Part shown: positions 746-49,116 of the stretch, in pieces
How the letters are laid out: every line of letters begins with the position of its first letter
Position numbering within the stretch: position 1 is the stretch's first letter
From: Candidatus Microgenomates bacterium
Lineage (GTDB): Bacteria > Patescibacteriota > JACPGU01
DNA length: 64,000 nucleotides
Assembly (NCBI GenBank): GCA_016188915.1
Contig: JACPGU010000002.1
Location: 11,388-75,387, forward strand
Direction of reading: 5' to 3'
The notes under the pieces: generated by a model
The model's database searches: none
The model's input: only the letters and a program-made list of their open reading frames with translations
Told to the model about the DNA's origin: nothing
Program-made: the position numbers and the translations under genes

Positions 746-786
746 AGGTCGTTCCTCGGGTAGCGAAGCGGACAGAGGTGCGACCT
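746..786. repeat. Palindromic element family C, copy 1 (AGGTCG..CCTCGG-AGCGAAGC-..GAGGTGCGACCT)
   Basis: Near-identical to copies at 9169-9209, 41970-42004 and 49072-49116 (some reverse-oriented); internal inverted symmetry. Confidence 0.7.
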
Positions 787-804
787 TAAAGAGCAGGTCT
801 TATC

Positions 805-1122
805 TTACAAAACAATATTAATCACCAGCGCCAAAACGGTAAAAATGAAAGTCCAGCCGATAGTAAATGAGAGCATCCTGACTGCCTCTTTTTTCTTCCC
901 GTCCAGATACAGCATCACAGGCTTGGCGAAAAATAGAGAACCCATGATAGAGGCGGAAAGAACTAGAATTAGCAGTATCATCATCGGACCAACCATAGTC
1001 ATGTCATCCCCTTGGCCAAAAAGCGCTTCACCATTGGACATCAAAAGAGCAACAAGAGAAATATAGACGACAGCTAGCAGGGCATTGAGAAAACTTTGCA
1101 AAACCAGATTCTTTTTTTGCAT
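805..1122 (-). CDS. Small hydrophobic membrane protein (3 predicted TM segments), hypothetical
   Basis: 105-aa ORF, strongly hydrophobic; its first ~23 codons are duplicated at 2477-2549. Confidence 0.45.
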   Translation of the reverse strand: MQKKNLVLQSFLNALLAVVYISLVALLMSNGEALFGQGDDMTMVGPMMILLILVLSASIMGSLFFAKPVMLYLDGKKKEAVRMLSFTIGWTFIFTVLALVINIVL

Positions 1123-1123
1123 A
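1051..1123. repeat. 73-bp direct repeat, copy A (partner at 2477-2549); covers the 5' end of the 805-1122 gene
   Basis: ~69/73 identical to 2477-2549. Confidence 0.85.
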
Positions 1124-1172
1124 CATTTGACTTAATAATATGATAGTCTATGCAACCCTCCGCGAGTACAGC

Positions 1173-1236
1173 CTATTTGCAAATTTCTGATACCTGCCTT
1201 GCCGTAATGAAATCTATTTGCAAATTCCTGATATTC
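1173..1236. promoter_or_regulatory. Two 22-bp direct repeats (ctatttgcaaatttctgatacc / ctatttgcaaattcctgatattc) spaced 41 bp, upstream of the membrane-protein gene
   Basis: Read directly; 1 mismatch between copies. Confidence 0.4.
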
Positions 1237-1297
1237 AGGATATTGCAAGAGATTACACGAGAGAGGGCATGATAAAGTTAATGTTTTTTGTTTATTA

Positions 1298-2604: not shown

Positions 2605-4986
2605 TCAAACACCCACCTCTGCGTACAGCTCTTCCTGAAATTCAAAAAACATAGCTCGGATCTTTTCCACTCCGCCGAGGGCTGTCGCCGCATCAGCTAT
2701 AGCCTGATACTTGAGATTGAGAAGTTTTGGTAGTTTTTCCTCATCCAGCTCATCAACACCGTTATCAATATATTTATCAATAACAAAACTCAAGAATTCT
2801 TTTTCTTTGTCATCTATCCCCTTAAATATAAGAGGTCTTGCTCTGATAACTCTCTCCTCTCTTGTAATCGGTTTTATCGCAAAAGAAACATAGGAGAGAA
2901 CATCAAATAGGTCGGAATCTTCGGCATTGACCAATCTTTGCAGACCTTCTAGCTCTTCCTTCCCATATCCCTGATCTGCGATTTTCTCAAGGAATGCTTT
3001 TCTTGTTACGGGATTTGACCAGATCTTCCTTAGCTCTTCTTCACTTTTGAAAAACTCTGGCAATTTGCCAAACATGTTTTGCAGGAATTCTTCGGCAGAT
3101 ATGGGCTTGCCGTCGGCACTCCAAAAAGAAGTTGATACCATATGCTGGATTTCCCTTTCTTTCCCATCGCGTAATTTTATTTTCAGTTTCTGTCTTGGCA
3201 CATTTTCGCATTCACATGGATCTTTACTGCATTCAGGACAAAGATTGGGAACCCTTTCGCATATACAAGGATTCTCGCCACACACAGGGCACACTTCTTT
3301 TGGCTTCCTTTCGCAAATACAAGGATCTTCTCCGCATTTCGGACAGATCTCCTCGACGGGTTCGCCGTCCCACTCGGGGTCAGAAAAGTGATGATATGCT
3401 CCGACAAAATCTAGAATAGTAAAATACTCTTTACCGTCAAAAAGTCGTGTCCCACGACCAACGATCTGCTTGAATTCAATCATGGAGTTGACTGGACGCA
3501 TCAGAACGATGTTGCGGATGTTGCGGGCGTCAACACCAGTAGATAGTTTCTGTGAAGTAGTTAAGATGGTCGGAATAGTCTTCTCGTTATCTTGAAAATC
3601 TCGCAAATACTGTTCGCCTCTTGTGCCATCATTTGCAGTAACTCTAACGCAATAATTTGGGTTCGCACTTTTCTTAAATTGATTTATCAGGTCTCTCACG
3701 GCGGCTGCGTGTTCCTGCGTAGCGCAAAAAACAATCGTCTTCTGGCTCTGATCAATCTCGTCCAGCATTATCCTCACGCGCTTTTCTTCTCTCTCCTTGA
3801 TCTTGATAATCTTGTTGAAATCTTCCTCCTTGTATATCTTGCCAATCTCCACTTCTCCTTCGACAACTTCGTCGTCAGAAGTATAAACATATTCATCAAG
3901 AGTTGTTTGGATTCGCTTGACCTTGAATGGCGTCAAAAATCCGTCATTGATTCCCTCCTTCAGAGAATAGGTATAAACTGGCTCACCAAAATATTTGTAT
4001 GTATCAATATTATCTCTCCTTTTTGGCGTTGCTGTCAGGCCCAGTTGAACAGCGGGAGAGAAATAATCCAAAATATCACGCCAGTTTGATTCGTCGTTTG
4101 CTCCGCCTCGGTGACACTCGTCAATTATGATGAAATCAAAAAAGTCCTTTGGATATTCGCCAAAATATGGCGCGCCACCAGGACCACTCATAAATGTTTG
4201 AAATATTGTAAAAAATATACTGCCATTTGTTGGCACTCCACCCTTCTTGCGAATATCGAGTGGGCTGATACGAACTAGCGCATTTTGGTCAAACGGAGAA
4301 AACGAGTTGAACGCCTGATTTGCCAAAATATTTCGATCAGTAAGAAAAAGTATTCTGGGTTGCCTCGCCCCATCTCGCTTTAAGTTCCAACGAGAATGAA
4401 AGAGCTTCCAAGCAATCTGAAAAGCGATGAATGTCTTTCCCGTTCCGGTAGCGAGAGTTAGAAGAATTCTCTGCTTGTTCTCGGCAACAGCATCAAGAGT
4501 GTTGTTGATAGCATTCTCCTGATAGTATCGCAAGATCTTCGTACCACCAATATCTTCAAAAGGAACTTGCGCAAACTTATTTTTCCATTCATTTTGATCA
4601 GAGAAAGCTTTGTTCCATAATTCTTCTGGCGTTGGGAAGCTATCAACCAGAGTTTCTTTCCCACTTTTCATCTCAATCTCATAGATCTCCTTGCCATTGG
4701 TGGCATAGGTGTATTCTGTTTGCAGTTTCTTAGCATAATCTTTTGCCTGCGCCACACCTTCAGAATAAGAAATGGTTTCCGCCTTTGCTTCAACCACAGC
4801 CAGCTTCTGATTTTTGTAAACTAAAACATAGTCAGCAATTTCTTTTTTGCCTCTTATCCCTCCAGGCTGGATGCGCCCTTCGGTAATATGATGTTCGCGC
4901 AGAATCTTTGACCCCCCTGTCTCACCCCATCCGCTTTCTTTCAATTTCGGGTCAATATATTCCGCTCTTGTCTCTGCTTCGTTCAT
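2605..4986 (-). CDS. hsdR: Type I restriction enzyme R subunit HsdR (short form, 793 aa) with C-terminal Cys-rich tandem repeats
   Basis: N-terminal MNEAETRAEYIDPKL; helicase motifs TLATGTGKT and IIIDECHRG; TATPKR; ~3195-3345 encodes 3 repeats of CPxCGExPCICER. Confidence 0.9.
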   Translation of the reverse strand: MNEAETRAEYIDPKLKESGWGETGGSKILREHHITEGRIQPGGIRGKKEIADYVLVYKNQKLAVVEAKAETISYSEGVAQAKDYAKKLQTEYTYATNGKEIYEIEMKSGKETLVDSFPTPEELWNKAFSDQNEWKNKFAQVPFEDIGGTKILRYYQENAINNTLDAVAENKQRILLTLATGTGKTFIAFQIAWKLFHSRWNLKRDGARQPRILFLTDRNILANQAFNSFSPFDQNALVRISPLDIRKKGGVPTNGSIFFTIFQTFMSGPGGAPYFGEYPKDFFDFIIIDECHRGGANDESNWRDILDYFSPAVQLGLTATPKRRDNIDTYKYFGEPVYTYSLKEGINDGFLTPFKVKRIQTTLDEYVYTSDDEVVEGEVEIGKIYKEEDFNKIIKIKEREEKRVRIMLDEIDQSQKTIVFCATQEHAAAVRDLINQFKKSANPNYCVRVTANDGTRGEQYLRDFQDNEKTIPTILTTSQKLSTGVDARNIRNIVLMRPVNSMIEFKQIVGRGTRLFDGKEYFTILDFVGAYHHFSDPEWDGEPVEEICPKCGEDPCICERKPKEVCPVCGENPCICERVPNLCPECSKDPCECENVPRQKLKIKLRDGKEREIQHMVSTSFWSADGKPISAEEFLQNMFGKLPEFFKSEEELRKIWSNPVTRKAFLEKIADQGYGKEELEGLQRLVNAEDSDLFDVLSYVSFAIKPITREERVIRARPLIFKGIDDKEKEFLSFVIDKYIDNGVDELDEEKLPKLLNLKYQAIADAATALGGVEKIRAMFFEFQEELYAEVGV

Positions 4987-5057
4987 GTCTATATTATACT
5001 ATTTTCTGCTTATTTAAGCAAATATAGCAATCAAAAAACATCTCCCCTAGAGATGTT

Positions 5058-5297
5058 TTAATAATTTCTCATTATTTCTTCTGCGTCATACCCCCATCCT
5101 TCTGCCTGTTTGAGTTTGTCTCTCAAGACTTCTTTGTATATCTTGCTCTGCAATGTTATGAACTGTTTGTTCTTTGGGTTTGTTAGCTTGTAGTGTCCAC
5201 CTTTCCCTCCGCTCATATCCAGAATAAAGCCCATCTTTACGAAAGCTCGCGCAAGTCGTTTTTGAGATATGTCCGATGGCAGATCATGCGGTAACAT
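5058..5297 (-). CDS. hicA: HicA-family mRNA interferase toxin
   Basis: 79 aa, KRLARAFVKMGFILD..GGKGGHYKL resembles the HicA/YcfA fold signature (GxxGSH); overlaps upstream hicB by 14 nt. Confidence 0.7.
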   Translation of the reverse strand: MLPHDLPSDISQKRLARAFVKMGFILDMSGGKGGHYKLTNPKNKQFITLQSKIYKEVLRDKLKQAEGWGYDAEEIMRNY

Positions 5298-5652
5298 ATC
5301 TCTCCTCCCGCGCAGTCAACGACTGTGTAGCTGAAAGAGGAGATGAGTTAAGCGGTGGGTTAAAGGTGATTCTCTTGGGATCGCAATAGCGAACCGGTAT
5401 TTCAAACGCAGTAAATATCGCGTCCTTTAATTCTTTTTCTAAATCCTCTTTTGTAGTACCTGTGGCAGAGATGTACCCCCGTGGGTAATCCACGGACTCT
5501 GCATAAAGATATTTCTCACCATCTTCTTCTACCGAGCGTACATTGAATTTTATCCCTCTTTGAGAGAGCTCAATTCCAAGAACGTCAAGCTTCTCTAGCG
5601 CTTGTGAAGGTGTAGCTAAATATGATTGTATCCTATGGACTAGCCTGTTCAT
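5284..5652 (-). CDS. hicB: HicB-family antitoxin (UPF0150)
   Basis: EEDGEKYLYAESVDYPRGYISATGTTKEDLEKELKDAI matches the HicB EDGxY..PG..S.G.T.EEA pattern; coupled to hicA. Confidence 0.65.
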   Translation of the reverse strand: MNRLVHRIQSYLATPSQALEKLDVLGIELSQRGIKFNVRSVEEDGEKYLYAESVDYPRGYISATGTTKEDLEKELKDAIFTAFEIPVRYCDPKRITFNPPLNSSPLSATQSLTAREERYVTA

Positions 5653-5800
5653 ATATGTGCTTTTAGCTGAATTATAATGCTAGCAAAAAATTCAACAAAA
5701 GTCAAGAATTAACTACATTATAGCATCACCCAAATCATTGTCAAAGAAAGACAAGATGCCTCATAATTCTCCCCTAAATATCCCTGTCTCGCCGTAGCTT

Positions 5801-6979
5801 TTATAATTTCCCAGCGAAGGCGGATTGTAGCACCGACTTCTTCAGCTCCTCCAAATCCGCTAATTTTTGTTTATAAATCCCCTCCAGCTTCTTTGTCTCC
5901 CCTGATAACGCATCCAGCTTCGCAATAATAGACTTCTGTTCGGAAAGGGATTTTGGATAAAAAATATTAAAATCTTCCAACTGAGCTTTTGTAATTGCTT
6001 GCCTTGTTGCCCCTTGTCCACCAATTACCAATAATTGATCCTTATATATTTTTGAAGTAAGTAAATAGTTTAAAAAAGTTGGATCAATTATTTCTTTTCT
6101 TGGCCTTATAATCGATACATGCTGATTTACTCTTGCTGGTAAATATTTTTCATCAAAAACGCAACATCGCGCCACAGATGCTCCCGTTATATTTAATAAT
6201 ACGTCGCCTTTTTCAAGAGTAACATTTAATAGGTCTTTTGCCTGTTTATCATTAATAAAGGCGAGGTTTTTTTCTACAAAATTTCTATCATGTACATTCA
6301 TGCTGCGCACCAAAGAAATCCCTTGTTTTATATATGACTCCCTTCCTCCTCGTGGAGTTGCGCCACTTCCTATTTTTAAAGTTAGATTTTCAAGTCTATC
6401 AGTTTCCCAATCCTTCCCCTGATTCGTAAAAACACTCTGCAAATACGATTCAAAAAGCTCTTTGGAATTTTGGAGATTTTTTTCAGTATTCTCCTTCGCC
6501 TTTTTTATCTCCCCAAAAACCTCATCCAATATTTTTACAATGCGTTGCTGTTCGGGGAGAGGGGGGAGCGGAACCTGAATATTCTCTATATCTTTTTTGT
6601 TTATTGAAGCAAAAACTGCACCAGCATTGCCAGATATGTTTTTCTCATTAAGAACTAGGAAATAAAATAAAAAATCTTTGTCTATATCTTTTCCCGCTCG
6701 GATACTTGCGAGACCACGCCCGATACATATCTTTTGTGTTGCAAAGTTAATTGGACCAACCGGAGCACGAACAGACATTAAGATATCGTTTTCCTGTGCC
6801 TCTTTAGTGGTTTTAGTTGTCCATACCGTTGGTTCTCCGAGAAATATTTCGCCAAACTCTTTTTTTCCTTGATAGAAGGGTGTGCCATCTTGTTTGCTAT
6901 TATAAAAACGTCCTTCTGGGGATTGGCCAGCTATCACACTACAAACCTCACCAAGTTTCATTGTTTGCCAATTATTCAT
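5801..6979 (-). CDS. hsdS: Type I R-M specificity subunit HsdS (two target-recognition domains)
   Basis: MKLGEVCSVIAGQSP...conserved central LPPLPEQQRIVKILDEVF and C-terminal SLSEQKSIIAKLDAL repeats. Confidence 0.9.
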   Translation of the reverse strand: MNNWQTMKLGEVCSVIAGQSPEGRFYNSKQDGTPFYQGKKEFGEIFLGEPTVWTTKTTKEAQENDILMSVRAPVGPINFATQKICIGRGLASIRAGKDIDKDFLFYFLVLNEKNISGNAGAVFASINKKDIENIQVPLPPLPEQQRIVKILDEVFGEIKKAKENTEKNLQNSKELFESYLQSVFTNQGKDWETDRLENLTLKIGSGATPRGGRESYIKQGISLVRSMNVHDRNFVEKNLAFINDKQAKDLLNVTLEKGDVLLNITGASVARCCVFDEKYLPARVNQHVSIIRPRKEIIDPTFLNYLLTSKIYKDQLLVIGGQGATRQAITKAQLEDFNIFYPKSLSEQKSIIAKLDALSGETKKLEGIYKQKLADLEELKKSVLQSAFAGKL

Positions 6980-7547
6980 AAATACTTTTTTGTAGCTCCA
7001 TAATTAAAACCTCCCACTTTCTAAAGTATTCTTCTATTGTTGTATTTTTATTTGAATCAACCTCGTTTACGCCATCATCTAAATTTTTTATTCTATCATA
7101 GCTATCACTGTCTACGTCCAAATGTAGATAAGTATATTTACTCTTATCCTTATCAACAAGTTTTGCCGACGATGGCCATAAGCCTTCGAGAGCCAATCTT
7201 ATCTCCTTTGGTAAAAGTATATCCGATCTAATATCTATATGATCAAAAAGTAAGAAGTAATTTATATCAAAATACACTTTTTCTTTTGCTATAGAAACCA
7301 GATCCTTTTCATAAAATCTTCTTTTATCAACTAAAATATCATTTAGAAAAATCTGATAAATTGATCCATTGTTTGTGTATATTAAGAATCTTATATTCTT
7401 AATATATTCCAACAAACTTTTAGAAAAACTATATTTATCTCTTCCCCGAATTTCTGTTTTCCAGACCGAAAGTGCCTTCCAAGCAATAATAATTACAGCT
7501 ATTTGCAATAAAATCCCTATAATTCTTATAATATTTTCATAAATCAT
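6972..7547 (-). CDS. Hypothetical protein with a single N-terminal TM helix; embedded in the hsd operon
   Basis: 191 aa; IIRIIGILLQIAVIIIAW hydrophobic segment; 8-nt overlap with hsdS start, 12-nt gap after the KAP NTPase gene. Confidence 0.5.
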   Translation of the reverse strand: MIYENIIRIIGILLQIAVIIIAWKALSVWKTEIRGRDKYSFSKSLLEYIKNIRFLIYTNNGSIYQIFLNDILVDKRRFYEKDLVSIAKEKVYFDINYFLLFDHIDIRSDILLPKEIRLALEGLWPSSAKLVDKDKSKYTYLHLDVDSDSYDRIKNLDDGVNEVDSNKNTTIEEYFRKWEVLIMELQKSIYE

Positions 7548-7558
7548 TTGTTTGCCAG

Positions 7559-9004
7559 TTAGTTTTCATATTCGCGGTAACTATCTTTGTGATATTTACT
7601 TTTTTCTACATATTCAATAAGTAGATCCATAAACATCTTTTCCTTATTGTTATTACTGACGCTCATGCCCTCGTGGTCATTCAGATCAACATTGAGTTCA
7701 TACCCTTGCCACTTTACTGGGACGCCATCATTTTCTGGTATTTTTATATCCAGAGGTTTAAGCATGGTTTTTATAAATCTCATAAAAGGCATTCTTGCTC
7801 TTGATTCATTTGGATTACCTTTAATTTTTTTTAGTTTTTCAATAAAAACTTCAGGACTTGAGAAACTATTGATAGCTATATTAACTGCTATATCATATAT
7901 TTTTTGAAAATTATCTGAAAACGGATCCTCATTATAACTACCCTTTTTTAGCTCTTGCATTTGAAACTTTGTTGCCTTCAATAGTTCCCTTAGTGTCATG
8001 CTGTGGTTGCCTATAGCATTACTGAAAATATATGCAAGAAAGTACTTAATGTATCCGCTATCTTGTATTGCATCTTTTAAGTTCGGCTCTTCGTTTTTGA
8101 TACTTTTGACAATTTCATCAACCATATCTAGCACTGCCTTTCGATTATCAAAATAATATGGGGCAACTGAAAAAAACTTATCTACATAACCATAAAAATC
8201 GGTCTCAATTCCATATTTATGATGAAAAATATGCTTCAAGTTCGTATAATCGCCAACAATAATTATTAGGTCAAATCCAAACTTATTTTCATTTTCTTTT
8301 TCAAAATAAGCCGACAAAACATTTAAGATTCTAAATATATGCCCTGGGTCAATTCTATCTAGATCATCCAGAATAAGGACGCTTTTCTTCTGACCTTTTT
8401 GCTGAATAATTTTCTCCTTCAAAAGATGGCTTAAATAATCTGTTTCGGAAATACTTTTTGTTTTTATTGCTTCAGTGTATTTTTCCGCCAGCCCCTTCTC
8501 GCCTTTTTTGTATTCTTTCTTAAATTCCTGAAACTCTTTGTCAATTTCCAATAAGTCTTTTAGTGGCCTGCCAAGTTTCCCTAGTATATTAGTGATTGGG
8601 TCAATAGACAGTTCGGCATACGATTCTCCCGCGGAGAGAGTTGATTGCAAAAACGAATTTAGCGAAAATCTTTTCTTGCACCATGAATAAAAAAGAAGGG
8701 CGGAGTCTTTGATGCCTTCAATTTTATTTTCCTGTAATATATCTTGATTCTTTTTTAATAATTCTACTAAAATATCATATTTGATTAACTCTAATACATC
8801 TTCGTTATTACTAATTTGATAATTTACTGGGTAAAGATGAAACGCTTCATATTTGTCCTTTAGTGAATCAAAAAATTTATTGAGAAAATAGGTTTTCCCA
8901 ATACCAAATTTGCCAGAAAAAAACACTCGCGAATTTTTTTCTGTATCAAGGAAAGAATCAAATTTGCCTTTTATGGTTTCAATTGGTATTTCTATTTCAG
9001 TCAT
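7559..9004 (-). CDS. KAP-family P-loop NTPase (predicted), embedded between hsdM and hsdS
   Basis: Walker A GKFGIGKT; Walker B/KAP signature VLILDDLDRIDP; 481 aa; starts 7 nt after the hsdM stop. Confidence 0.6.
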   Translation of the reverse strand: MTEIEIPIETIKGKFDSFLDTEKNSRVFFSGKFGIGKTYFLNKFFDSLKDKYEAFHLYPVNYQISNNEDVLELIKYDILVELLKKNQDILQENKIEGIKDSALLFYSWCKKRFSLNSFLQSTLSAGESYAELSIDPITNILGKLGRPLKDLLEIDKEFQEFKKEYKKGEKGLAEKYTEAIKTKSISETDYLSHLLKEKIIQQKGQKKSVLILDDLDRIDPGHIFRILNVLSAYFEKENENKFGFDLIIIVGDYTNLKHIFHHKYGIETDFYGYVDKFFSVAPYYFDNRKAVLDMVDEIVKSIKNEEPNLKDAIQDSGYIKYFLAYIFSNAIGNHSMTLRELLKATKFQMQELKKGSYNEDPFSDNFQKIYDIAVNIAINSFSSPEVFIEKLKKIKGNPNESRARMPFMRFIKTMLKPLDIKIPENDGVPVKWQGYELNVDLNDHEGMSVSNNNKEKMFMDLLIEYVEKSKYHKDSYREYEN

Positions 9005-9010
9005 ATGAAC

Positions 9011-10513
9011 TTAAATAATAGTTTTTATCTTTTTTAGTATTTTTTCGTTTTCCTTGTCCGCCTCCTCTATCTCTCGTAAAATTTCTTTTGGCTCTCTTAT
9101 CTTTATCTCACCATCTTTATTCGGATTTTTTACGGAGAGGTCAAAGGTCGACGAAAAATCGCTCTTTAAGGTCGCACCTCCGTCCGCTTCGCTCCCCGAG
9201 GAACGACCTTTTCCCACGACATCAATCGTCCAAGAATTGGCGGAATCAGATTTGGTTTTTTGGAGAGCAAGAAAGTCGGCGAGGTCGGAGTCGTTCAAAG
9301 GATTGGTTTTGCCGAGGTTACGGTCGAGATTTAGCTGGTAATACCAAATCTTTTTTGTCGGTTCGCCCTTGGTAAAAAAAAGCACCACCGTCTTCACACC
9401 TGCTCCGGTAAATGTGCCACCAGGGAGATCGAGGATTGTGTGGAGATTGCAAGATTCTAAGAGCAGTTTGCGGAGCGAGACAGACGCATTATCAGTATTG
9501 GATAGAAATGTATTTTTTATAACTATGCCTGCTTTTCCTCCCGCTTTGAGGATTTTTATGAAATGCTGGAGAAAAAGAAAAGCCGTCTCACTGGTTTTGA
9601 TTGGAAAATTTTGCTGAACCTCTGGCCTCTCTTTGCCTCCAAAGGGCGGATTGGTGATTATGATGTCGTAACGATCTTTCTCTTGGATATCGGCAAGATT
9701 CTCCGTTAGAGTATTGGTATGAATAATATTTGGCGCTTCAATGCCATGCAAAATCATATTCATAATACCGATGATGTATGCGAGCGATTTCTTTTCTTTG
9801 CCATAAAAAGTTTTTTTCTGGAGTACGTCCCATTGATCAGGAGAGAGCTTCTCTCGATCTTGCGACAGATATTCAAAGGCGGAAACGAGGAATCCTGCCG
9901 ACCCAACAGCTCCATCGTAAATCTTGTTTCCTATTTTTAGATCAACCACTTTGACGATCGCCTTGATGAGCGGACGCGGAGTATAGTACTCCCCACCATT
10001 TCTCCCCGCATTGCCCATATTTTTGATCTTTGACTCATAGAGATGCGAGAGCTCATATTTCTCGCTTTGCGTATGAAAGTGCATACCATCCACAACGTCC
10101 AAAATATTGCGAAGCGTATAGCCACTTTGAATCTTGTTTTTTATTTCAGAGAAAATCTCACCGATTTTGTAATCAATCGTGTCCGGCTCTTCTGATTTGA
10201 ATTTCTTGAGATATGGGAAAAGCTCATGATCCACAAAATCCTTCAGATCGTCGCCTGAAAGCGCTTTATTGTGGTCGAGCTTACCATCAGCCATCTTTGG
10301 ACACGCCCACACTTCCCAGCGAAACTTTGGGTCTATAATATATTTGTATTCTTTGCCGGCCAATAGCGCTTCTTGCTTCCTATCTTCTTCGAGATCGTCA
10401 AGATACTTCAAGAAAAGAATCCATGAGGTCTGTTCAATATAATCAAGCTCGCTGGACAGCCCCGCGTCTTTCCAAAGCACATCGTCAATGTTTTTGAATG
10501 ATTGTTCAAACAC
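9011..10513 (-). CDS. hsdM: Type I R-M N6-adenine DNA methyltransferase subunit HsdM (GTG start)
   Basis: IITNPPFGG (NPPF catalytic motif), GSAGFL AdoMet motif; the C-terminal region carries an in-frame family C palindromic element. Confidence 0.9.
   Translation of the reverse strand: MFEQSFKNIDDVLWKDAGLSSELDYIEQTSWILFLKYLDDLEEDRKQEALLAGKEYKYIIDPKFRWEVWACPKMADGKLDHNKALSGDDLKDFVDHELFPYLKKFKSEEPDTIDYKIGEIFSEIKNKIQSGYTLRNILDVVDGMHFHTQSEKYELSHLYESKIKNMGNAGRNGGEYYTPRPLIKAIVKVVDLKIGNKIYDGAVGSAGFLVSAFEYLSQDREKLSPDQWDVLQKKTFYGKEKKSLAYIIGIMNMILHGIEAPNIIHTNTLTENLADIQEKDRYDIIITNPPFGGKERPEVQQNFPIKTSETAFLFLQHFIKILKAGGKAGIVIKNTFLSNTDNASVSLRKLLLESCNLHTILDLPGGTFTGAGVKTVVLFFTKGEPTKKIWYYQLNLDRNLGKTNPLNDSDLADFLALQKTKSDSANSWTIDVVGKGRSSGSEADGGATLKSDFSSTFDLSVKNPNKDGEIKIREPKEILREIEEADKENEKILKKIKTII
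9169..9209. repeat. Palindromic element family C, copy 2, in-frame inside hsdM (encodes ~GRSSGSEADGGATLKS)
   Basis: aggtcgcacctccgtccgcttcgctccccgaggaacgacct; matches copies 1, 3 and 4. Confidence 0.7.
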
Positions 10514-10553
10514 AAGATTGAATCCTCGTTATTTTTTTAGCTCTCTTTCCCCC

Positions 10554-10581
10554 ATTTTACCACAATTTTGCCGGGAGGCAA
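10554..10581 (-). promoter_or_regulatory. Candidate promoter of the hsdM operon (TTGCCT-N16-TGgTAAAAT, extended -10)
   Basis: Minus-strand read of ttgcctcccggcaaaattgtggtaaaat ~40 nt upstream of the hsdM start. Confidence 0.4.
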
Positions 10582-10640
10582 AGGCTAAGAAATTAAGAAA
10601 ATAAAAAATTAAGAAAATAAAGTTTGGTCGGGAATGACAT

Positions 10641-10670
10641 AAAAGTAAAAGGGCGCTATCTGCGCCCCTT
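10641..10670 (-). terminator. Rho-independent terminator (GGGGCGC-agata-GCGCCC + T-run) after the fic-like gene
   Basis: Read directly. Confidence 0.6.
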
Positions 10671-10690
10671 TACCGACTACCACTCATTTT

Positions 10691-11701
10691 CTACTTTTTC
10701 AACAACATCAAAACCAGACCAATTATTTGGTCTTTGTCTTTTGGGTTGCTTTCTGCAACCAATAGCGTAAGTGCAGTCAAAGCTTCGGGGGTCAATCGTT
10801 TAGTATTGAGCCGTCCCGCTTTTCTCAAAAACCAGATGAAAGCGAAAGCTCCACTTCTCTTATTGCCATCGATAAAAGGATGATTTTTTACCATGAAGTA
10901 AAGCAAATGAGTTGCTTTTTCTTCTATGGTAGGATAGGCATCTCCACCGCTGAAAGACTGCATAACATTTCCGACTATCCCAGCGACAGATCCCCTTTCT
11001 CGTTCTGTTGCAAAAAGATCTGTCGCCTCGTCTTTCTCTATAAGTGATTTCTTGAGTACGAGTATTGCTTCGTCGAGCATTTCGGAAGTTAGCTTTACTG
11101 ATTTCTTTGTTGCGCCTGAAGTCGCAAACTTTTTCTTGTCATAAGCCCCGATAGACAACCATGCATCTGCAAACATCGACACCAACTCCAATACGCCCTT
11201 CGTGTCAACAGATGCTCCGGCAGGCAAAAATTTCTTTACGTTCTCTACTGCCCTAATGAACTGTTCGTAGTTTTTTGCTATACGGTTTTTATTTATTGCA
11301 TAACCGTCTACAATATAACTTCGCAAAGTCTTGGTCGCCCATTGACGAAACCTTGTCCCCGTCTTAGAGCTAATACGATAACCAACAGAGACAATGGCAT
11401 CAAGATTATATATGTCAACCGAACGCTCGACCCTACGACCACCCTCTATTTGAACTTGTTCCATTTTGGAACATGTTGCTTTCTTAGAAAGCTCTCCCTC
11501 TTTGTAGATATTTTTGAGATGTTTTGTTATCGCCTGAGGATTTACGCCAAACACAAACGCCATCTGTGCTTGTGTCGCCCAAATAGTTTCGCGACTCAAA
11601 TCGCCCTTGAGCTCAATCGCCCCAGATTTCGCCTGATAAATTACGATCCGATTATTCGACTGATTATTCTTTTTCATCCTTCCTATTTTATCATCTTTCA
11701 C
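10691..11701 (-). CDS. RhuM-domain / Fic-domain fusion protein
   Basis: N-terminal RhuM block (AQMAFVFGVNPQAITKHLKNIY...YNLDAIVSVGYRISSKTGTRFRQWATK); C-terminal Fic motif HPFIDGNKRSGA. Confidence 0.75.
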   Translation of the reverse strand: MKDDKIGRMKKNNQSNNRIVIYQAKSGAIELKGDLSRETIWATQAQMAFVFGVNPQAITKHLKNIYKEGELSKKATCSKMEQVQIEGGRRVERSVDIYNLDAIVSVGYRISSKTGTRFRQWATKTLRSYIVDGYAINKNRIAKNYEQFIRAVENVKKFLPAGASVDTKGVLELVSMFADAWLSIGAYDKKKFATSGATKKSVKLTSEMLDEAILVLKKSLIEKDEATDLFATERERGSVAGIVGNVMQSFSGGDAYPTIEEKATHLLYFMVKNHPFIDGNKRSGAFAFIWFLRKAGRLNTKRLTPEALTALTLLVAESNPKDKDQIIGLVLMLLKK

Positions 11702-11706
11702 TGACA

Positions 11707-38696: not shown

Positions 38697-40058
38697 TTAA
38701 TTTTTTATTTTCTTATCTTTCTCCCTCATATACGGGAAAAACATTATTTCTCGCAAAGTTTCACTATCGGTGAGAAGTTTGACGAGACGATCCACGCCCA
38801 TGCCCCAACCGGCGGTTGGTGGCATACCGTACTCCAGCGCTTCAATATAATTATTATCTACTTGGTGCGCCTCTTTATCTCCTTTTTTCCTATTTTTGTC
38901 TTGCTCTTCAAATCTAGCCAATTGGTCTGCCGGATCATTAAGCTCGCTATAAGCTTTTACCAATTCCTGGCCCGCGACAATCAGCTGAAAGCTTTGCACT
39001 GTCTTGCCGTCTTTGTTTTTCTTGGCCAGTGGCAAAAGTTCCGTAGGATGATCGATCACAAAAGTCGGCTGTATTAATTTTTTTATTCCGTTTTTGAATG
39101 CTTCGTCAGATTTTTTGCCACCCGTCACTTGCGCAAAAGTTTTCCGAGCAAAAGGTTTTTTGAATATAATTTTTTTCCCGCCTGCCGTAATGTAATTTTT
39201 GCCAAAAACATCTTTGGCCAATCTTATGAGCATTTCTTCTGTCAATTTCATTAAGTTTTCATAGTCAGCGTAAGCCCAGTAAAATTCTAGAATGGTAAAT
39301 TCCGGATTGTGATTGGCGTCCACTCCTTCGTTGCGAAAGGCCTTCCCGATTTCATACACTTTTTCAAAACCACCGATAATCAATCGCTTCAAATAAAGTT
39401 CCGGCGCGATGCGCAAATAAACATCAGCGTCGTAAGCATTGTAGCGAGTCTTGAAGGGCTCCGCGATAGCTCCTCCGGCCATCGGCTGGATGATGGGCGT
39501 ATCTACCTCTAGAAATCCTTTATCTTCAAGAAAGCCAGTCAAAGATTTGATGATTTTGTTTCTGGTAATGAATTTTTCCTTGGCTTCTTTGTTGAAAATA
39601 AGGTCTAGATGGCGACGGCGATAACGTTCTTCGGTATCGGTAATGCCGTGCCATTTGTCGGGCAAGGGGAGGAGAGATTTGGTTAATATCTCAAACTTTT
39701 TCACCAAAATAGTCTTCTCTCCTGCCTTGGTCTTGAAGGTCTCGCCTTCTACGCCAATGAAGTCCCCGAGATCGAAATTTTTGATGAAAAATTTGTATTG
39801 TTCTTTGCCAATTTCCTTTTCGTTGAAAGCGATTTGGATTCTGCCCGCCCCGTCTTGAATGTGAGCGAAACAAATCCGCCCGAGATCGCGAATGAGCATC
39901 AGTCTCCCCGCCACTCGCACCTTCTTGGCGCCCATTTTCAATTTCAAAGCCTCCGCGCTGGTGTGCGTTCGGTCAAATTTCGCCGGATAGGAGTTCACCC
40001 CCATTTTCTTCAAATTTTCCAGCTTTTCTAGGCGAATTTTTTTGAAATCTTGCTCCAT
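38697..40058 (-). CDS. lysS: Lysyl-tRNA synthetase class II (likely start MEQDFKKIRLEKL; ORF track extends to 40148)
   Basis: OB-fold N-domain; class II motifs; C-terminal GMGVDRLVKLL. Confidence 0.9.
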   Translation of the reverse strand: MEQDFKKIRLEKLENLKKMGVNSYPAKFDRTHTSAEALKLKMGAKKVRVAGRLMLIRDLGRICFAHIQDGAGRIQIAFNEKEIGKEQYKFFIKNFDLGDFIGVEGETFKTKAGEKTILVKKFEILTKSLLPLPDKWHGITDTEERYRRRHLDLIFNKEAKEKFITRNKIIKSLTGFLEDKGFLEVDTPIIQPMAGGAIAEPFKTRYNAYDADVYLRIAPELYLKRLIIGGFEKVYEIGKAFRNEGVDANHNPEFTILEFYWAYADYENLMKLTEEMLIRLAKDVFGKNYITAGGKKIIFKKPFARKTFAQVTGGKKSDEAFKNGIKKLIQPTFVIDHPTELLPLAKKNKDGKTVQSFQLIVAGQELVKAYSELNDPADQLARFEEQDKNRKKGDKEAHQVDNNYIEALEYGMPPTAGWGMGVDRLVKLLTDSETLREIMFFPYMREKDKKIKN

Positions 40059-41907: not shown

Positions 41908-41969
41908 TGTTAGATTGTCGTATTGTTATATTGTTAAAAAGATAGAAACCTCAAACCGTCTCCGACAAG

Positions 41970-42004
41970 AGGTCGTTCCTCCGGCTCTGCTGGAGGTGCG
42001 ACCT
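41970..42004. repeat. Palindromic element family C, copy 3
   Basis: aggtcgttcctccggctctgctggaggtgcgacct. Confidence 0.7.
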
Positions 42005-42058
42005 CAAATTTCGCGCCATCTTGTAGAAGCCACAGAACTATCGACCGGCCAGCATTTC

Positions 42059-43474
42059 TTATTTCTTCGGAAACAGCGGTTCCGCTTTCACTATCTTTTC
42101 TTGTTTGAAAATACTGAGAATTTTTTCTGATATCTCTGGAATGAAAGGCAATAGCTTACCGGCGATATCTTTGATCGCGACTAGACAAATGCCAATGATT
42201 TCCTCTAATTTTTCTTTATCATCTTTGATCGCCCATGGCTCTTCTTTTGCGATGAAATTGTTACATGCTTCTATCTTCTTTGCGACCACTTCCAGCGCTT
42301 TGTCTAGTCGCAGTTCGGTAAAACATTTGTCGTACTCCTCCGAGATATTTTCCAAATCCTGATATTTTTCAGAAAACGCTATATTATTTTTTTCCGCCAG
42401 ATTCGTCACGCGACTGACAAGATTGCCGAGGCCATTAGCTAATTCATTATAACGAATATCAAATCTTTCCCATGTAAAATCGCCGTCTTCGGTAGTTGGG
42501 ATTTCACGAAGGAGGAAATAACGCAGAGCATCCACGCCGTAGCGACCGAGCGCCTCATCAACATCAATGGTATTGCCCAAGGTTTTACTCATCTTTTTCC
42601 CACCGGAGATAATATGCCCGTGCACCAAAATACCTTTCGATGGTTCGATATCAGCTGACAGCAACATCGCCGGCCAATAAATAGCGTGAAATCTCGTGAT
42701 GTCTTTGCCGATGACATGCAGATCGGCCGGCCAATATTTCCTGAACTTTTCTTCATCGGAAAAAGCTCCGACTCCGGAAAGATAATTCGCGAGCGCGTCA
42801 AACCATACATACATTACTTGCGTCGAATCATCCGGCACCTCTATCCCCCAGGTCAGCTTTTCCTTTGGTCGAGAGACGGAAAAGTCCTCTAGTTCGTTCA
42901 AGATATTCAAAACTTCTTTTTTGCGATGCTCCGGATAGATTTTGAGATTCCCATTCGTAATCAATTCGCGTATTTTGTCTTTGTAGTTCGCGAGCTTGAA
43001 GAACCAATTTTCTTCCTCCACCGCATCGGGCGCTCTATCGTGATCCGGACATTTACCACTAACCAAATCGCTTTCTTTTTTGAAGCTCTCGCATTCGGTG
43101 CAGTAAAGTCCTTGATATTTTTTCAAATACAAATCGCCTTTGCTCTTGCATCTCTCCCATATTTTTTTCACCACTTCAATATGGTCAGGATCGGTCGTGC
43201 GAATGAAACGATCAAAAGAAAGGTTGAATCTTTCTTTCATAGCGACAAATTCCTTCACATTCCGGTCAACCAGCTCTTGCGGAGTGATGCCTTCTTTTTC
43301 CGCCATCTGTTGCATCTTAAAGCCGTGCTCATCAGAACCAGTCAAAAAAAATACTTCCTCGCCTTTTTCGCGATGATAGCGCGCAATGGTATCGGCCACA
43401 ATCTTTTCAAAAACATGCCCGATATGCGGTCGCCCGTTAAGATAGTCAATGGCAGTAGTGATGTAGAATTTCAT
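42059..43474 (-). CDS. metG: Methionyl-tRNA synthetase (short form, no C-terminal tRNA-binding domain)
   Basis: PHIGHVFE (HIGH), KMSKTLGN (KMSKS). Confidence 0.95.
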   Translation of the reverse strand: MKFYITTAIDYLNGRPHIGHVFEKIVADTIARYHREKGEEVFFLTGSDEHGFKMQQMAEKEGITPQELVDRNVKEFVAMKERFNLSFDRFIRTTDPDHIEVVKKIWERCKSKGDLYLKKYQGLYCTECESFKKESDLVSGKCPDHDRAPDAVEEENWFFKLANYKDKIRELITNGNLKIYPEHRKKEVLNILNELEDFSVSRPKEKLTWGIEVPDDSTQVMYVWFDALANYLSGVGAFSDEEKFRKYWPADLHVIGKDITRFHAIYWPAMLLSADIEPSKGILVHGHIISGGKKMSKTLGNTIDVDEALGRYGVDALRYFLLREIPTTEDGDFTWERFDIRYNELANGLGNLVSRVTNLAEKNNIAFSEKYQDLENISEEYDKCFTELRLDKALEVVAKKIEACNNFIAKEEPWAIKDDKEKLEEIIGICLVAIKDIAGKLLPFIPEISEKILSIFKQEKIVKAEPLFPKK

Positions 43475-46007: not shown

Positions 46008-46196
46008 AACCCCTTCATTATTTCTAAGTATTACCATTCGCGACCACCTCCCTAATCATAATACGAGAGAGATATTTCGGAAATTGTGGGAGAAGACCAA
46101 AGAATAATATGCATCAAATTTTTAAGGAGAGACCTTAAGAATTTTCCCAAGGTCTCGCCTTGGTAAATTATTCCCGTTTTATAGTTTCTTAATTTC

Positions 46197-46910
46197 TTAC
46201 TTTCTTAATTTCTTATTAATCGCCACCACAAACTCGCCTTTCTGCTTCTTTTTGCCAAAATACTCTGAAAGCTCCGAGAGCGTACCTCTTTTGATCTCTT
46301 CAAATATTTTGGTTAGTTCTCTACCCACCACTGCTTCGCGATCGCCTAGAAAATTCTCTAGCTCTTTCAATGTTTTGACGATGCGATGAGGCGACTCAAA
46401 AAAAATGATTGTTCGATTTTCTTTTTTCAAAGATTGCAACAAGGTTTGTCTGCCTTTTTTCTTGGGCAAAAATCCGAGAAAGAGGAATTGGTCGGTCGGA
46501 AAACCGCAGACAGAAAGGATAGAGGTGAGAGATGAGGCACCTGGGATAGGCACGATGTTAGTCCCGAGGAGAGACCTCGGGGAATCCCCCGAGGTCTCTC
46601 CTCGGGAAGATTCTGTGTAGATTTTCTCGATTAAGCGATTCCCCGGATCGGCTATCCCCGGTGTTCCCGCGTCGGTCACGAGCGCGAGATTTTTCCCATT
46701 TTGCAAAAGCTTTAAGATCTCTTCTTCGCGCGAGTTTTTGGAATGTTCGTGATAGGAGATGAGCGGGATCTTGATATTGTATTTGTCCAAAAGTTTTTTT
46801 GTCACTCTGGTATCTTCCGCCAAAACAAAATCCACGCTTTTCAATACCTCCAAAGCGCGTAGTGTGACATCGCCTAAATTGCCAATGGGAGTGCCTACTA
46901 TATAGAGCAT
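46197..46910 (-). CDS. rsmI: 16S rRNA (cytidine1402-2'-O)-methyltransferase RsmI, with an in-frame GC-rich palindromic insertion
   Basis: MLYIVGTPIGNLGDVTLRALEVL...ESPHR; insertion encodes SSRGETSGDSPRSLLG. Confidence 0.85.
   Translation of the reverse strand: MLYIVGTPIGNLGDVTLRALEVLKSVDFVLAEDTRVTKKLLDKYNIKIPLISYHEHSKNSREEEILKLLQNGKNLALVTDAGTPGIADPGNRLIEKIYTESSRGETSGDSPRSLLGTNIVPIPGASSLTSILSVCGFPTDQFLFLGFLPKKKGRQTLLQSLKKENRTIIFFESPHRIVKTLKELENFLGDREAVVGRELTKIFEEIKRGTLSELSEYFGKKKQKGEFVVAINKKLRK
46563..46606. repeat. 44-bp GC-rich palindrome (CCCGAGGAGAGACCTCGGGG-aatc-CCCGAGGTCTCTCCTCGGG), family B; shares the AGAGAC/GTCTCT core with family A
   Basis: Read directly; inside rsmI. Confidence 0.75.
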
Positions 46911-46983
46911 AAGAAATTAAGAAATTAAGAAATTAACAGCTCAAGAGTTTTTCTGGTTTTTTATTTTTTATTTTCTTATCCCA

Positions 46984-48267
46984 CTATCTCATCACAAACA
47001 TCAACACCGCCGCCACCAGCATGACAAAGAAAGTTAGCCAGCCGAGGGAGCGAAGGAGGAGCCCGCTCTGGTATTTACCCATCACTTTTTTGTTTCCGGT
47101 AATTACCGTGATCAGCAGAATGAGAGGCACCGCCACGATACCATTAATGATAGCGGCGTAGATTAGAGCCTGTATAGGATTTACACCCAAGATATTCAAA
47201 AATAATCCGACCAAGGTAGAAACAATAATAACTCCATAGAACCCTTTCGCATCTTGAAATTTCTTTGACAGACCCTGTCTCCAACCGAATGTTTCAGACA
47301 CCGCGTATCCCGCCGAACCGGCCAAGACCGGTATGCCAAGTAACCCCGCGCCGATGATGCCGATGGCAAAAAGTAAATACGCGCCATCTCCGGCCAAAGG
47401 TCGCAACGCTTCCGCCGCTTCTCTGGCGGAAGTTATCTCATGGATGCCGGCGGTAAAAAGTGTGGAAGCGGCAGTGATAACAATAAAGAAAGTGATGGCT
47501 TGCGAGAAAATCATCCCAACAGCGGTGTCGGCATTGACTCGGGAGAAATCTGCCTTTGATACTTTGGGGGCATTCGCCCCTATTTCAGCTAATTTCCCTT
47601 CCGCTACCTCTTCCTCCGCTTCTTCCGATGTCTGCCAGAAAAAAAGATAGGGAGAAATGGTCGTACCGAGGAAAGCAACGACCATCATAATATAGGCGCT
47701 ATTCCACTCAAAGCGCGGGATGAAAAGAGAGCGAAAAATATTCGACCAGTCCTGCGGGATGATAAAAGCCACCAAGACATAGGAGAGAAAAATTACCGTC
47801 AGCCATTTCAATATCTGCACATATTTTTTGTATTTTACAAAAACCTCCAGCAAAATAATAACCAGCGCCACGATAATAGACCAGACCAAGATATTTCCAG
47901 CAAAAAGCATCTGCAGGACCGCTCCGATAGCCGAGATGTCCGCGCCAATATTGATAGTATTGGCGATGATCAGAAGCGCCACCACGAAATAAAGTAGATA
48001 CTTGGAATAATGTTTCTTTATCACTCCTGCCAATCCCATGCCGGTTACCAGTCCCAACCGTCCACACATTTCCTGCACCGCAATCATTAGCGGTAGCTGA
48101 AAAAGCGCCATCCATAATTGCCCCAGACCAAATCTGGCCCCCGCCATAGAGTAGGTCACAATCCCTGATGGATCATCGTCAGAAAACCCGGTGATAACGC
48201 CTGGACCGATGGATCGCCCCACGCGACTCCAAAAGCCACTTTTATTTCTTTGCTCTGATTTTTTCAT
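46984..48267 (-). CDS. mntH: NRAMP-family divalent metal transporter
   Basis: GPGVITGFSDDDPSGIVTYSMAGA; 11-12 TM. Confidence 0.75.
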   Translation of the reverse strand: MKKSEQRNKSGFWSRVGRSIGPGVITGFSDDDPSGIVTYSMAGARFGLGQLWMALFQLPLMIAVQEMCGRLGLVTGMGLAGVIKKHYSKYLLYFVVALLIIANTINIGADISAIGAVLQMLFAGNILVWSIIVALVIILLEVFVKYKKYVQILKWLTVIFLSYVLVAFIIPQDWSNIFRSLFIPRFEWNSAYIMMVVAFLGTTISPYLFFWQTSEEAEEEVAEGKLAEIGANAPKVSKADFSRVNADTAVGMIFSQAITFFIVITAASTLFTAGIHEITSAREAAEALRPLAGDGAYLLFAIGIIGAGLLGIPVLAGSAGYAVSETFGWRQGLSKKFQDAKGFYGVIIVSTLVGLFLNILGVNPIQALIYAAIINGIVAVPLILLITVITGNKKVMGKYQSGLLLRSLGWLTFFVMLVAAVLMFVMR

Positions 48268-49027
48268 AGATATTTTCCCAATTTTCTAAATTTAATTCTT
48301 GTGACCGAATTTTTTCATCCATCCCCATCTTCCCCAGTATAACAAAGATTTTGTCTTTTGTAAGATTTTCGTATCCCGTCAGATTGTTCGCCAACGTTTT
48401 CCGCTTTGAAGAAAACCCTTGCTTGATTAAATTAAAGAAAGTGGTTTGGTCTTTAATTTCATAATTTCTTAATTTCTTAATTTCTAATTTTATTACTGCC
48501 GAGTCCACCTTCGGCGCGGGATGAAACGACTTTTTACTCACAAAAAATTTGATTTCAGCGACGGCAAACATCTGTACCGAAAGGGCGAGCAGATTCATCT
48601 GGGGTGGCTGGGCGCACATCCTCTCCGCTACTTCTTTCTGCACCATAAATGTCATTTCCGATGGCTTATTCTCCATTCCCGAAATAGTCCGCAGGAGAAA
48701 CGAGGTAAGATAGTATGGGATATTAGAAATAATTTTGTAATTTTGTAATTTTGTAATTTTTAAATATTGAAGGATGTCCCCGTTCACCAGTTCAAGATTT
48801 TCCACCTTAGAAAATTTCCTTTGCAGATATTCAAAAAGTTTCTCGTCCTTCTCCACCGCGATCACTTTTTTCGCTTTTTGGCACAAGGCGTAGGTCAGCG
48901 ATCCTTGCCCCGGACCTATTTCCAAAACAATATCGGACGGCTCTATTTCCGCCACTTCAATTATCCGGCGTAAAACTCCTCCATCCGCCAAAAAATTCTG
49001 TCCCAGTTTTGCTCTGTGAGATTTCAT
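48242..49027 (-). CDS. rsmA: 16S rRNA (adenine1518/1519-N6)-dimethyltransferase RsmA/KsgA
   Basis: LGQNFL, EIGPGQGSLT, NIPYYLTS. Confidence 0.9.
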   Translation of the reverse strand: MKSHRAKLGQNFLADGGVLRRIIEVAEIEPSDIVLEIGPGQGSLTYALCQKAKKVIAVEKDEKLFEYLQRKFSKVENLELVNGDILQYLKITKLQNYKIISNIPYYLTSFLLRTISGMENKPSEMTFMVQKEVAERMCAQPPQMNLLALSVQMFAVAEIKFFVSKKSFHPAPKVDSAVIKLEIKKLRNYEIKDQTTFFNLIKQGFSSKRKTLANNLTGYENLTKDKIFVILGKMGMDEKIRSQELNLENWENIYEKIRAKK

Positions 49028-49071
49028 GCTGGCCGTATACTATTTAATTTTTCTAAAAGCTATGCCCTATC

Positions 49072-49116
49072 CGAGGTCGCACCTCCGTCTTCGCTTCGCT
49101 ACGACCGAGGAACGAC
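49072..49116. repeat. Palindromic element family C, copy 4
   Basis: aggtcgcacctccgtcttcgcttcgctacgaccgaggaacgacct. Confidence 0.7.

Follow-up and report, generated by a model that had tools for sequence, protein, structure and literature searches.

The window analysed here, i.e., the whole stretch of 64,000 nucleotides (64 kb) from contig JACPGU010000002.1 of a Candidatus Microgenomates bacterium, contains exactly four copies of an imperfect palindrome, GGTCGTTCCTC-N(11-21)-GAGGTGCGACC, all with exact arms. The same arm pattern is dispersed in metagenome-assembled genomes (MAGs) of Patescibacteria, i.e., the Candidate Phyla Radiation (CPR). The element is interpreted, with a probability of roughly 0.65, as a short non-autonomous repeat of the REP type (repetitive extragenic palindrome) that acts as a single-stranded hairpin and is most likely moved by a Y1 transposase resembling the REP-associated tyrosine transposases (RAYTs). 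Taken together, the findings are best read as a system of the REP/RAYT type in CPR bacteria, whose copies are inserted in frame into essential genes unusually often.

Four copies in the window

The arm pattern is matched four times in the window versus 0.00 times in 100 dinucleotide-preserving shuffles of it. A search for any GGTC...GACC hairpin with arms of 11 nt and at most 2 mismatches yields the same four copies only (mean of 0.16 in 100 first-order Markov simulations). A fuzzy search of the window, with up to 3 arm mismatches, adds no copy. The four copies announced by an earlier note on this DNA were thus all recovered with exact arms, the interval given for the fourth one (49072-49116) being 1-3 bases off. 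The core motif GCGAAGC, which the note ascribed to the family, is present in copies 1, 2 and 4 and absent from copy 3. The two «miniature versions» that it placed at ~2449 and ~25941 (here about 2454-2466 and 25940-25953) are just generic palindromes of 13-15 nt, and their membership in the family is unsupported.

Nearly all genes of the window are on the minus strand, with a negative GC skew over its whole length. As previously noticed, intergenic positions directly 3' of genes, here minus-strand ones, are occupied by three copies: (i) copy 1 is 19 nt 3' of the stop codon of an open reading frame (ORF) of 105 aa (805-1122, -) and oriented opposite to that gene; (ii) copy 3 is 55 nt 3' of the stop codon of the MetRS gene (metG, ORF 42059-43474, -), in reverse orientation to the genes; (iii) copy 4 lies between the genes of PcrA (49178-51082, -), which it follows, and RsmA (48242-49027, -), in the same orientation as both. 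Copy 2 is located within hsdM. Copies 1 and 2 have 55 nt in common with 2 differences, including GGGAAAA before the core and TTAAAGAGC after it. In copy 1, an outer stem CCTGC/GCAGG is followed by a purine-rich 5x5 internal loop (GGGAA / AAAGA) and by the distal GCGAAGC mini-hairpin.

A terminator-like hairpin recognized by eye (Table 1) is directly downstream of copy 1 on the transcribed strand, and copy 1 is thus located between the stop codon and that hairpin. The terminator scan calls an overlapping but different stem near copy 1 (715-684, -). The stem at 711-728 is conserved, with changes, in locus L050 (loci from other genomes are designated by L and a number).

In-frame copies in hsdM and in other genes

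The HsdM ORF reads through copy 2 in frame (...VVGKGRSSGSEADGGATLKSD...), and its product matches with 100% identity a protein annotated at NCBI for a Candidatus Microgenomates bacterium. More than 100 HsdM homologues (CPR and other phyla, ~484 aa) are devoid of the segment GKGRSSGSEADGGATLKS, i.e., the insert represents 17-20 extra residues. Among the homologues compared, the segment was found only in P0002 (86% identity), at the same site. In the DNA copy of P0002, two arm positions differ: a C-to-T change turns C-G into T·G, and a G-to-A change turns T·G into T-A. Pairing on the sense, i.e., top, strand is kept in both cases. The conserved C-terminal motif TFDLSVKNPN continues in frame after the insert, which the alignment to 5YBB places directly before the YDL..NPN motif. 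Comparison of the filled and empty HsdM sites reveals no direct duplication. The claim that one copy is in frame inside hsdM is therefore borne out: the reading frame is intact and the copy is an insertion relative to the homologues. On this basis the insert is probably translated and tolerated.

The AlphaFold model of HsdM, calculated to place the insert, was unusable (mean pLDDT of 44). The repeat-encoded peptide, a query too short for such a search, gave one candidate with common words and nothing scored in a set of 5.8 billion proteins. The 32-residue window peptide, also too short, gave no match at E up to 0.001 among 1.84 billion representatives. The type I restriction-modification (R-M) operon that contains hsdM (2605-11701) is interrupted by a KAP-family NTPase gene (7559-9004) and by a 191-aa ORF between hsdM and hsdS; a RhuM/Fic-domain gene is located upstream.

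The hsdM copy is not an isolated case. In the survey of 108 exact-arm copies, 35 are located in stop-free ORFs of at least 120 codons, and about a quarter of the copies are in frame in housekeeping genes. Full-length hosts according to NCBIfam are LeuRS, AlaRS (two copies), a PcrA-like helicase, UvrA, TsaD and Tgt. In the case of a P-type ATPase, the copy is 34 codons into the stop-free ORF and may precede the true start. Four of the six reading frames are used by the copies inside ORFs. As read from the sequence, the G+C-rich arms contain no stop codon in any of the six frames, which would account for the survival of in-frame copies.

LeuRS is the gene most often tied to the element (10 lineages among the 219 element-bearing loci). 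Exact-arm copies were found in LeuRS of three MAGs, and variant copies inside LeuRS of L085 and L092. The LeuRS site is empty in L029 and L088, filled in one orientation in L011 and L085 and filled in the other orientation in L039. Similarly, UvrA is filled in L068 while the window's own UvrA represents the empty allele. As to the insertion polymorphism that was to be looked for, it was found in the form of filled and empty homologous sites (HsdM, UvrA, LeuRS), and no recent polymorphism between strains was obtained.

It was also observed that, depending on the MAG, the element occupies the LeuRS loop directly preceding the FTTRPDT motif in one orientation or the other, and that some LeuRS genes have two copies of it.

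A perfect 21-bp palindrome, TCCCGAGGAGAGACCTCGGGG aatc CCCCGAGGTCTCTCCTCGGGA, is in frame in the window gene of RsmI (16S rRNA 2'-O-methyltransferase) and contributes ~15 residues (SSRGETSGDSPRSLL), which separate the motifs DPG and PIPGAS. The arms of this palindrome, GAGGAGAGACC/GGTCTCTCCTC, are like those of the element but in an «inside-out» order. From this arm similarity, it is possibly related to the element family.

Structure of the hairpin

Anatomy was described on the 108 exact-arm copies and covariation on 36 distinct cores of 34 nt. On the written strand, the arms pair as G-C, G-C, T-A, C-G, G-C, T·G, T·T, C-G, C-G, T-A, C-G, the two odd positions being C·A and A·A on the opposite strand. 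The T·G plus T·T mismatch is invariant, and makes the two strands unequal. The core stem of 11 bp is usually lengthened to 13 bp by (A/G)A...T(T/C). The core measures 28-65 nt, and its distal part, of variable length (5 to 42 nt), is itself a stem-loop.

According to their flanks, the copies can be described as: (i) class A, with a copy-specific yet complementary outer stem (made in some copies of an A-run and a T-run), then (C)GGGAAAA-core-TTGAGGAG; (ii) class B, i.e., GYATTTRA-core-TYGNCAAAYTTG; (iii) other forms, in which very long perfect palindromes surround the same core. Window copies 1 and 2 belong to class A. The outer-stem run of class A has a mean of 5.5 bp versus 1.9 bp in 1000 permutations (maximum of 2.75). 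An internal loop CGGGAAAA / TTGAGGAG is conserved and occurs in two topologies. In L057 (3600-3716), and also in L033, L016, L103 and L162, a second palindrome, GGTCTTTCC.../...GGAGAGACC, encloses the core hairpin; the nested form of L057 has the internal loop CGGGAAAA / TTAAGGAG in rotated order and a DNA fold of -37 kcal/mol (z of -8.4).

Among the 36 cores, pairing is seen in 99.1% of the cells, and in 5 pairs both sides change (e.g., A-U/G-C 22:12 and G-C/C-G 18:17). One-sided changes are nearly all G·T on the top strand, i.e., A·C on the bottom strand, and wobble pairs are thus tolerated on the top strand only. Compensated arm variants keep the TT/TG positions: among the matches listed, G-C is changed to T-A in six, C-G to T-A in four and T-A to C-G in one. 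For all four window copies, the DNA fold of the top strand is more stable than that of the bottom strand by 1.8-4.1 kcal/mol, with top-strand z-scores from -1.5 to -4.2. The orientation relative to transcription is unbiased overall (50 same, 36 opposite), with ratios same:opposite of 6:13 for class A and 16:6 for class B. There is no orientation bias relative to replication, as judged from GC skew (41:40). The covariation, the wobble tolerance on one strand and the unbiased orientation argue for a hairpin of one DNA strand and not for a sense-specific RNA. The active form would thus be single-stranded DNA.

Distribution of the element

The arm pattern is present in at least 99 stretches of a one-genome-per-species collection, nearly all from MAGs of Patescibacteria/CPR (Paceibacteria/Parcubacteria, Vogelbacteria, Minisyncoccales and bins labelled «Saccharibacteria»), for ~2 matches expected by chance (own estimate, with uniform composition assumed). 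Metagenomes contain at least 120 stretches with the pattern. The scan of relatives proposed earlier therefore reveals a widespread, if patchily distributed, repeat, not one confined to the window. The density is 4 copies in the 64 kb of the window and, elsewhere, up to about 15 loci in one MAG, where exact arms only were scanned. A few matches come from G+C-rich genomes such as Streptomyces and Actinoplanes; these are probably fortuitous, since their loops form no hairpin and the matches are inside ORFs.

It must be noted that synteny with the window was found for CAYHEQ01, a MAG labelled «uncultured Candidatus Saccharibacteria» (its locus L050, among others, compared with window 50-1192). The TPA MAGs labelled Saccharibacteria include a close relative of the window organism, whose HsdM is assigned by NCBI to Microgenomates. 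Such taxon labels are unfit for inferring the breadth of the distribution.

None of the viral contigs carries the arm pattern. With Rfam 15, the window contains four tRNAs only at the gathering score. Literature searches, by sequence and by keywords, gave no description of this repeat nor of REP/RAYT in CPR.

A RAYT-like Y1 transposase

Clustering of the ORFs of the 219 element-bearing loci gives, second to LeuRS only, a family of 220-260 aa present in 10-12 loci from 9 lineages. Its characteristics are as follows: (i) 7 of 8 members match Pfam Y1_Tnp (PF01797) with 26.9-39.9 bits (cut-off of 23); (ii) the best NCBIfam model for 8 of 8 members is the REP-associated tyrosine transposase NF047646 (E down to 1.5e-13), the IS200 model being far worse (E of about 0.03-0.07 vs. 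1e-13); (iii) the motifs HUH (NHFHL) and YIxxNP are conserved and, in a profile alignment, stand opposite HMH and YIYINPV of E. coli TnpArep (4ER8), the best match of the family profile among solved structures. Judged by these profiles, the family is a distant RAYT relative and not a curated member. A phmmer search with TnpA of IS608 and IS200 gave no match, the family having emerged from ORF clustering. No other transposase family recurs in the 219 loci, and no tnpB was called beside the RAYT-like gene in the loci for which gene tables were returned.

The order sigma factor, DUF5667, ~700-aa gene, RAYT-like gene and LCAT-type lipase is kept from 84% down to 59% identity. Each RAYT-like gene is bracketed, within 0-60 nt, by matching palindromes, which in some loci carry the arm of the element, AAGGTCGCACCT…AGGTGCGACCTT. 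In the L034 lineage, the flanks are GCATAGGTCGCACCTA...TAGGTGCGACCTATGC for the gene of L034; AAGGTCGCACCTTGCAAG/CTTGCAAGGTGCGACCTT on both sides for L231/L232; GTTGTGCAAGGTCGCACCTTGCACAAC on both sides for L233, in which further GAGGTCGCACC...GGTGCGACCTC palindromes are nearby; and arms of the GGTGTCACC or GGTTTCACC type for other orthologues. Within 7 kb of the RAYT-like gene of L234, the element is present as one exact copy, AAGGTCGTTCCTCGCTGTAATCGGCGAGGTGCGACCTT, and as two variants. In three lineages, the arm of the element and the palindromes on both sides of the syntenic gene are thus identical over 10-13 nt. Besides, a palindrome of the flanking type is located inside the RAYT-like ORF itself in L233 (10189-10230) and in L234 (10198-10257).

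From these sequence features, a RAYT-like enzyme would be what moves the copies. The Y1 (HUH) transposase, encoded elsewhere in the genome, would bind the top-strand hairpin on transiently single-stranded DNA, cut it and rejoin it at new sites, in the manner of IS200/IS605 TnpA and RAYT enzymes. The surviving insertions would be the least harmful ones, i.e., right after stop codons or in frame in permissive protein loops such as that of HsdM. The earlier idea of a mobile or recombinogenic short palindromic element is in any case strengthened by the unrelated contexts, the two orientations, the filled and empty sites, the spread and the RAYT-like gene with palindromes of the same arm.

Several results weigh against a REP-type element moved by this enzyme. 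The scores of the family with NF047646 (14.5-50.9 bits) are below the curated cut-off of 80 bits, and the match with 4ER8 is weak (E of 0.011). The 64-kb window contains no RAYT-like gene, and ten window ORFs that do not look like housekeeping genes include no transposase. The flanking palindromes are perfect (GGTCGCACC/GGTGCGACC) while the dispersed copies have GGTCGTTCC on one arm. The RAYT-like genes of L037, L051, L220, L134 and L195, although near copies, have quite different flanking palindromes, and the cognate enzyme is therefore not pinned down. The enrichment estimate for RAYT-like genes assumes one gene per genome. Neither a target-site duplication nor a defined target was found. 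Exact-protein look-ups for the genes beside copies 1, 3 and 4 gave no strain variants on record, and no strain-level polymorphism was obtained. Lastly, the copies at orthologous sites are too well conserved: (i) window copy 1 (735-797) and L050 (4693-4731) are identical over 61/61 nt for flanks at 70-82%; (ii) L014 (93-126) and L035 (1367-1400) share an element of ~70 nt with one compensated pair for flanks at about 70%, as read from the alignment; (iii) L011 and L085 share 62/64 nt of the element inside LeuRS proteins that are 54% identical. This conservation is not expected from simple decaying junk.

In these three orthologous pairs, the copies are nearly identical, the outer-stem changes are compensated and the flanking DNA is 65-82% identical. 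The conservation could result from selection on the hairpin, from repeated insertion with a site preference or from homogenisation. The near-unchanged orthologous copies, the LeuRS loop filled in both orientations and the complementary copy-specific outer stems lead to another, tentative interpretation, held to be rather improbable: a structure- or site-targeted hairpin element moving horizontally among CPR, or a domesticated hairpin under nucleotide-level selection that adds surface loops to essential enzymes. CPR bacteria are naturally competent.

Comparison with known systems

REP-RAYT systems are defined by a RAYT gene that has on both sides the repeat which it presumably moves (PMC2817692, PMC3116915, PMC3733652), and RAYTs, unlike IS200 transposases, stay at conserved loci according to PMC5581495. 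REPs are typically short imperfect palindromes of about 20-40 bp, with more than 100 dispersed copies in a genome. The present element resembles REPs and REPINs by its dispersed imperfect palindromes of 28-65 nt, probably many per genome and mostly just 3' of genes, by stems with G·T pairs and, in related genomes, by a syntenic and presumably single-copy Y1 (HUH) gene with palindromes of the same arm on both sides. Intragenic REPs, as well as RAYT-like genes with long flanking repeats, have already been noted by Di Nocera et al. (PMC3733652). Copies inside genes are occasional in REPs (PMC3733652), whereas here their share is much larger, and they are in frame and in essential genes. The present copies are not strictly extragenic; as the same study also reports intragenic REPs, this is a matter of degree. 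The differences are that: (i) the element ends with (A/G)AGGTCG ... CGACCT(T/C), GTAG or CGTC being found only inside some loops, and in the absence of the end tetranucleotide it is outside the GTAG and CGTC super-families (PMC3733652); (ii) the hosts are Patescibacteria/CPR, and distant CPR lineages have the same arms; (iii) the hairpin flanks the transposase gene in a perfect version, the dispersed one being imperfect; (iv) the proteins are longer than RAYTs (220-260 aa) and below the curated RAYT cut-off.

Like the Rickettsia palindromic elements (RPEs), the element consists of palindromes of a host-dependent bacterium with a reduced genome, in frame in unrelated housekeeping genes to which a conserved peptide is added (PMC10969869). 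RPEs differ by their length (about 100-150 bp vs. about 30-65 bp here), their unrelated sequence and their restriction to Rickettsia, while the present element has CPR hosts and a candidate Y1 transposase. To our knowledge, RPEs have no known transposase. The Y1 HUH transposase, the imperfect and mismatched hairpins of one strand and the gene bracketed by palindromes are common to IS200/IS605 and to TIRtrons/TIRYT (PMC3733652); in contrast to the moving insertion sequences IS200/IS605, the gene is here at a conserved syntenic site. [quoted passage not shown] However, Correia/NEMIS, ERIC, BOX and RUP measure 100-200 bp and have terminal inverted repeats and target duplications from DDE insertion sequences, neither of which is seen here.

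Alternative explanations

It is unlikely that the copies are primarily structural elements serving the host, i.e., 3' stem-loops that stabilise or terminate transcripts, or binding sites of a conserved CPR protein, with a mobility incidental or long past. In the window, three copies out of four are within about 3-60 nt after a stop codon, as are most copies of class B, class B tends to follow gene orientation, some class A copies are inside A-run/T-run outer stems and the orthologous copies are far better conserved than their flanks, with compensated outer-stem changes; the G·T/G·U tolerance of one strand was moreover the argument for transcribed REPs in PMC3733652. All this is expected from a host function. 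On the contrary, the overall orientation is near random and that of class A is opposite, the quarter of copies located in essential genes would be harmful as terminators, and copy 1 is followed by a separate terminator-like hairpin. Intrinsic terminators were rejected, as no window copy qualifies in gene orientation in the terminator scan. Copies 2 and 4 have T-runs, but not on the transcribed strand, on which copy 1 has only TTTT. It must be kept in mind that E. coli REPs are both mobile-type and host-serving, i.e., the REP and host-function readings are not exclusive. A small structured RNA gene or a self-cleaving ribozyme is very improbable. The strong covariation, the internal loop conserved in two topologies and the G·U-type mismatch that favours one strand would suit an RNA, but six element loci gave no match at any element with Rfam, even at E up to 1, no orientation bias exists, the copies inside ORFs occur in both orientations and four reading frames, and many copies per genome have unrelated flanks. 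A shared fragment of an RNA gene, considered in the earlier note, is excluded by the same Rfam result.

There is also little reason to favour an RPE-like or MITE-like palindrome independent of the Y1 enzyme, spread by recombination, natural transformation, template switching or an unrelated DDE transposase, the nearby Y1 genes being coincidental. This would account for copies often in frame in housekeeping genes, as are RPEs (PMC10969869), for the unrelated palindromes that flank many of the RAYT-like genes near copies, and for the outer stems that differ and yet are complementary, since «palindrome correction» by template switching would yield the same result without selection. Against this, the arm identity with the palindromes flanking the syntenic RAYT-like gene is seen in three lineages, no other transposase family is recurrent in the 219 loci, and the terminal inverted repeat plus direct target duplication of DDE-type MITEs was not seen.

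Other candidates were rejected: a DDE-type MITE (the flanks are inverted, not direct, and the HsdM filled and empty sites have no direct duplication); a phage origin (no viral contig has the pattern); an Xer/dif-like site (an 11-6-11 arrangement is found only in the shortest copies); and the integron attC, DNA uptake sequence, k-turn and hammerhead, for which the end motifs, the variable spacing or the helix number do not fit. The last two decisions were taken on reading the sequences.

Other repeats and coordinates of the features

An octamer AAGAAAT(T/A), in ~3 tandem units, is present at no fewer than 12 gene boundaries of the window (ends and starts), and is unrelated to the palindrome family. 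The two-unit pattern gives 34 matches in the window vs. 1.7 expected.

Table 1. Coordinates of the palindrome copies and of the other features mentioned (window positions unless a locus is indicated).
Feature	Positions	Strand	Remarks
Copy 1 (class A)	735-797, core hairpin 747-785	+	DNA fold -14.9 kcal/mol, z -3.1
Copy 2 (class A), hsdM insert (in frame)	9159-9219, core 9170-9208	-	top strand = sense strand; encodes GKGRSSGSEADGGATLKS
Copy 3, plain hairpin GAGGTCGTTCCTCC-GGCTCTGCT-GGAGGTGCGACCTC	41969-42005, core 41971-42003	+	-15.8 kcal/mol, z -4.2
Copy 4, extra outer stem TATCC/GGATA	49068-49129, core 49075-49117	-	-16.2 kcal/mol, z -4.1
hsdM, type I R-M methyltransferase subunit, host of copy 2	9011-10513	-	operon with KAP NTPase, hsdS, hsdR
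Terminator-like hairpin (by eye), context of copy 1	711-728	-	AACCCGC-ATAG-GCGGGTT then CCTTTTGAAG
Perfect 21-bp palindrome, possibly related	46562-46607		in frame in RsmI, ORF 46197-46910 (-)
LeuRS-associated copy, L011	1976-2018		
LeuRS-associated copy, L085	2157-2199		
LeuRS-associated copy, L085	3330-3368		
LeuRS-associated copy, L039	7709-7762		
LeuRS-associated copy, L039	7889-7952		
LeuRS-associated copy, L092	7489-7527		
AAGAAAT(T/A) tandem sites (examples)	10587-10617, 11752-11782, 16398-16496, 23225-23247, 27106-27136, 33428-33458, 38684-38714, 46184-46214, 46911-46977, 48456-48486, 49149-49179		

Significance

Selfish DNA is expected to be scarce in genomes as tiny as those of CPR bacteria (Patescibacteria), and REP-RAYT systems are described mainly in Proteobacteria and a few other phyla. 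As regards annotation, the window hsdM is to be treated as an intact gene carrying a repeat-derived insert. If the proposed interpretation is true: (i) the REP-RAYT system would be extended to a large and poorly known part of the bacterial tree; (ii) the element could serve to type strains and to mark the assembly breaks of CPR MAGs; (iii) it would explain the odd low-complexity inserts of 15-25 residues in HsdM, LeuRS, AlaRS, UvrA, RsmI and other proteins of CPR, which can be mistaken for lineage-specific protein features; (iv) palindromic DNA would have colonised the coding sequence of host-dependent bacteria in two independent cases, this one and that of Rickettsia.

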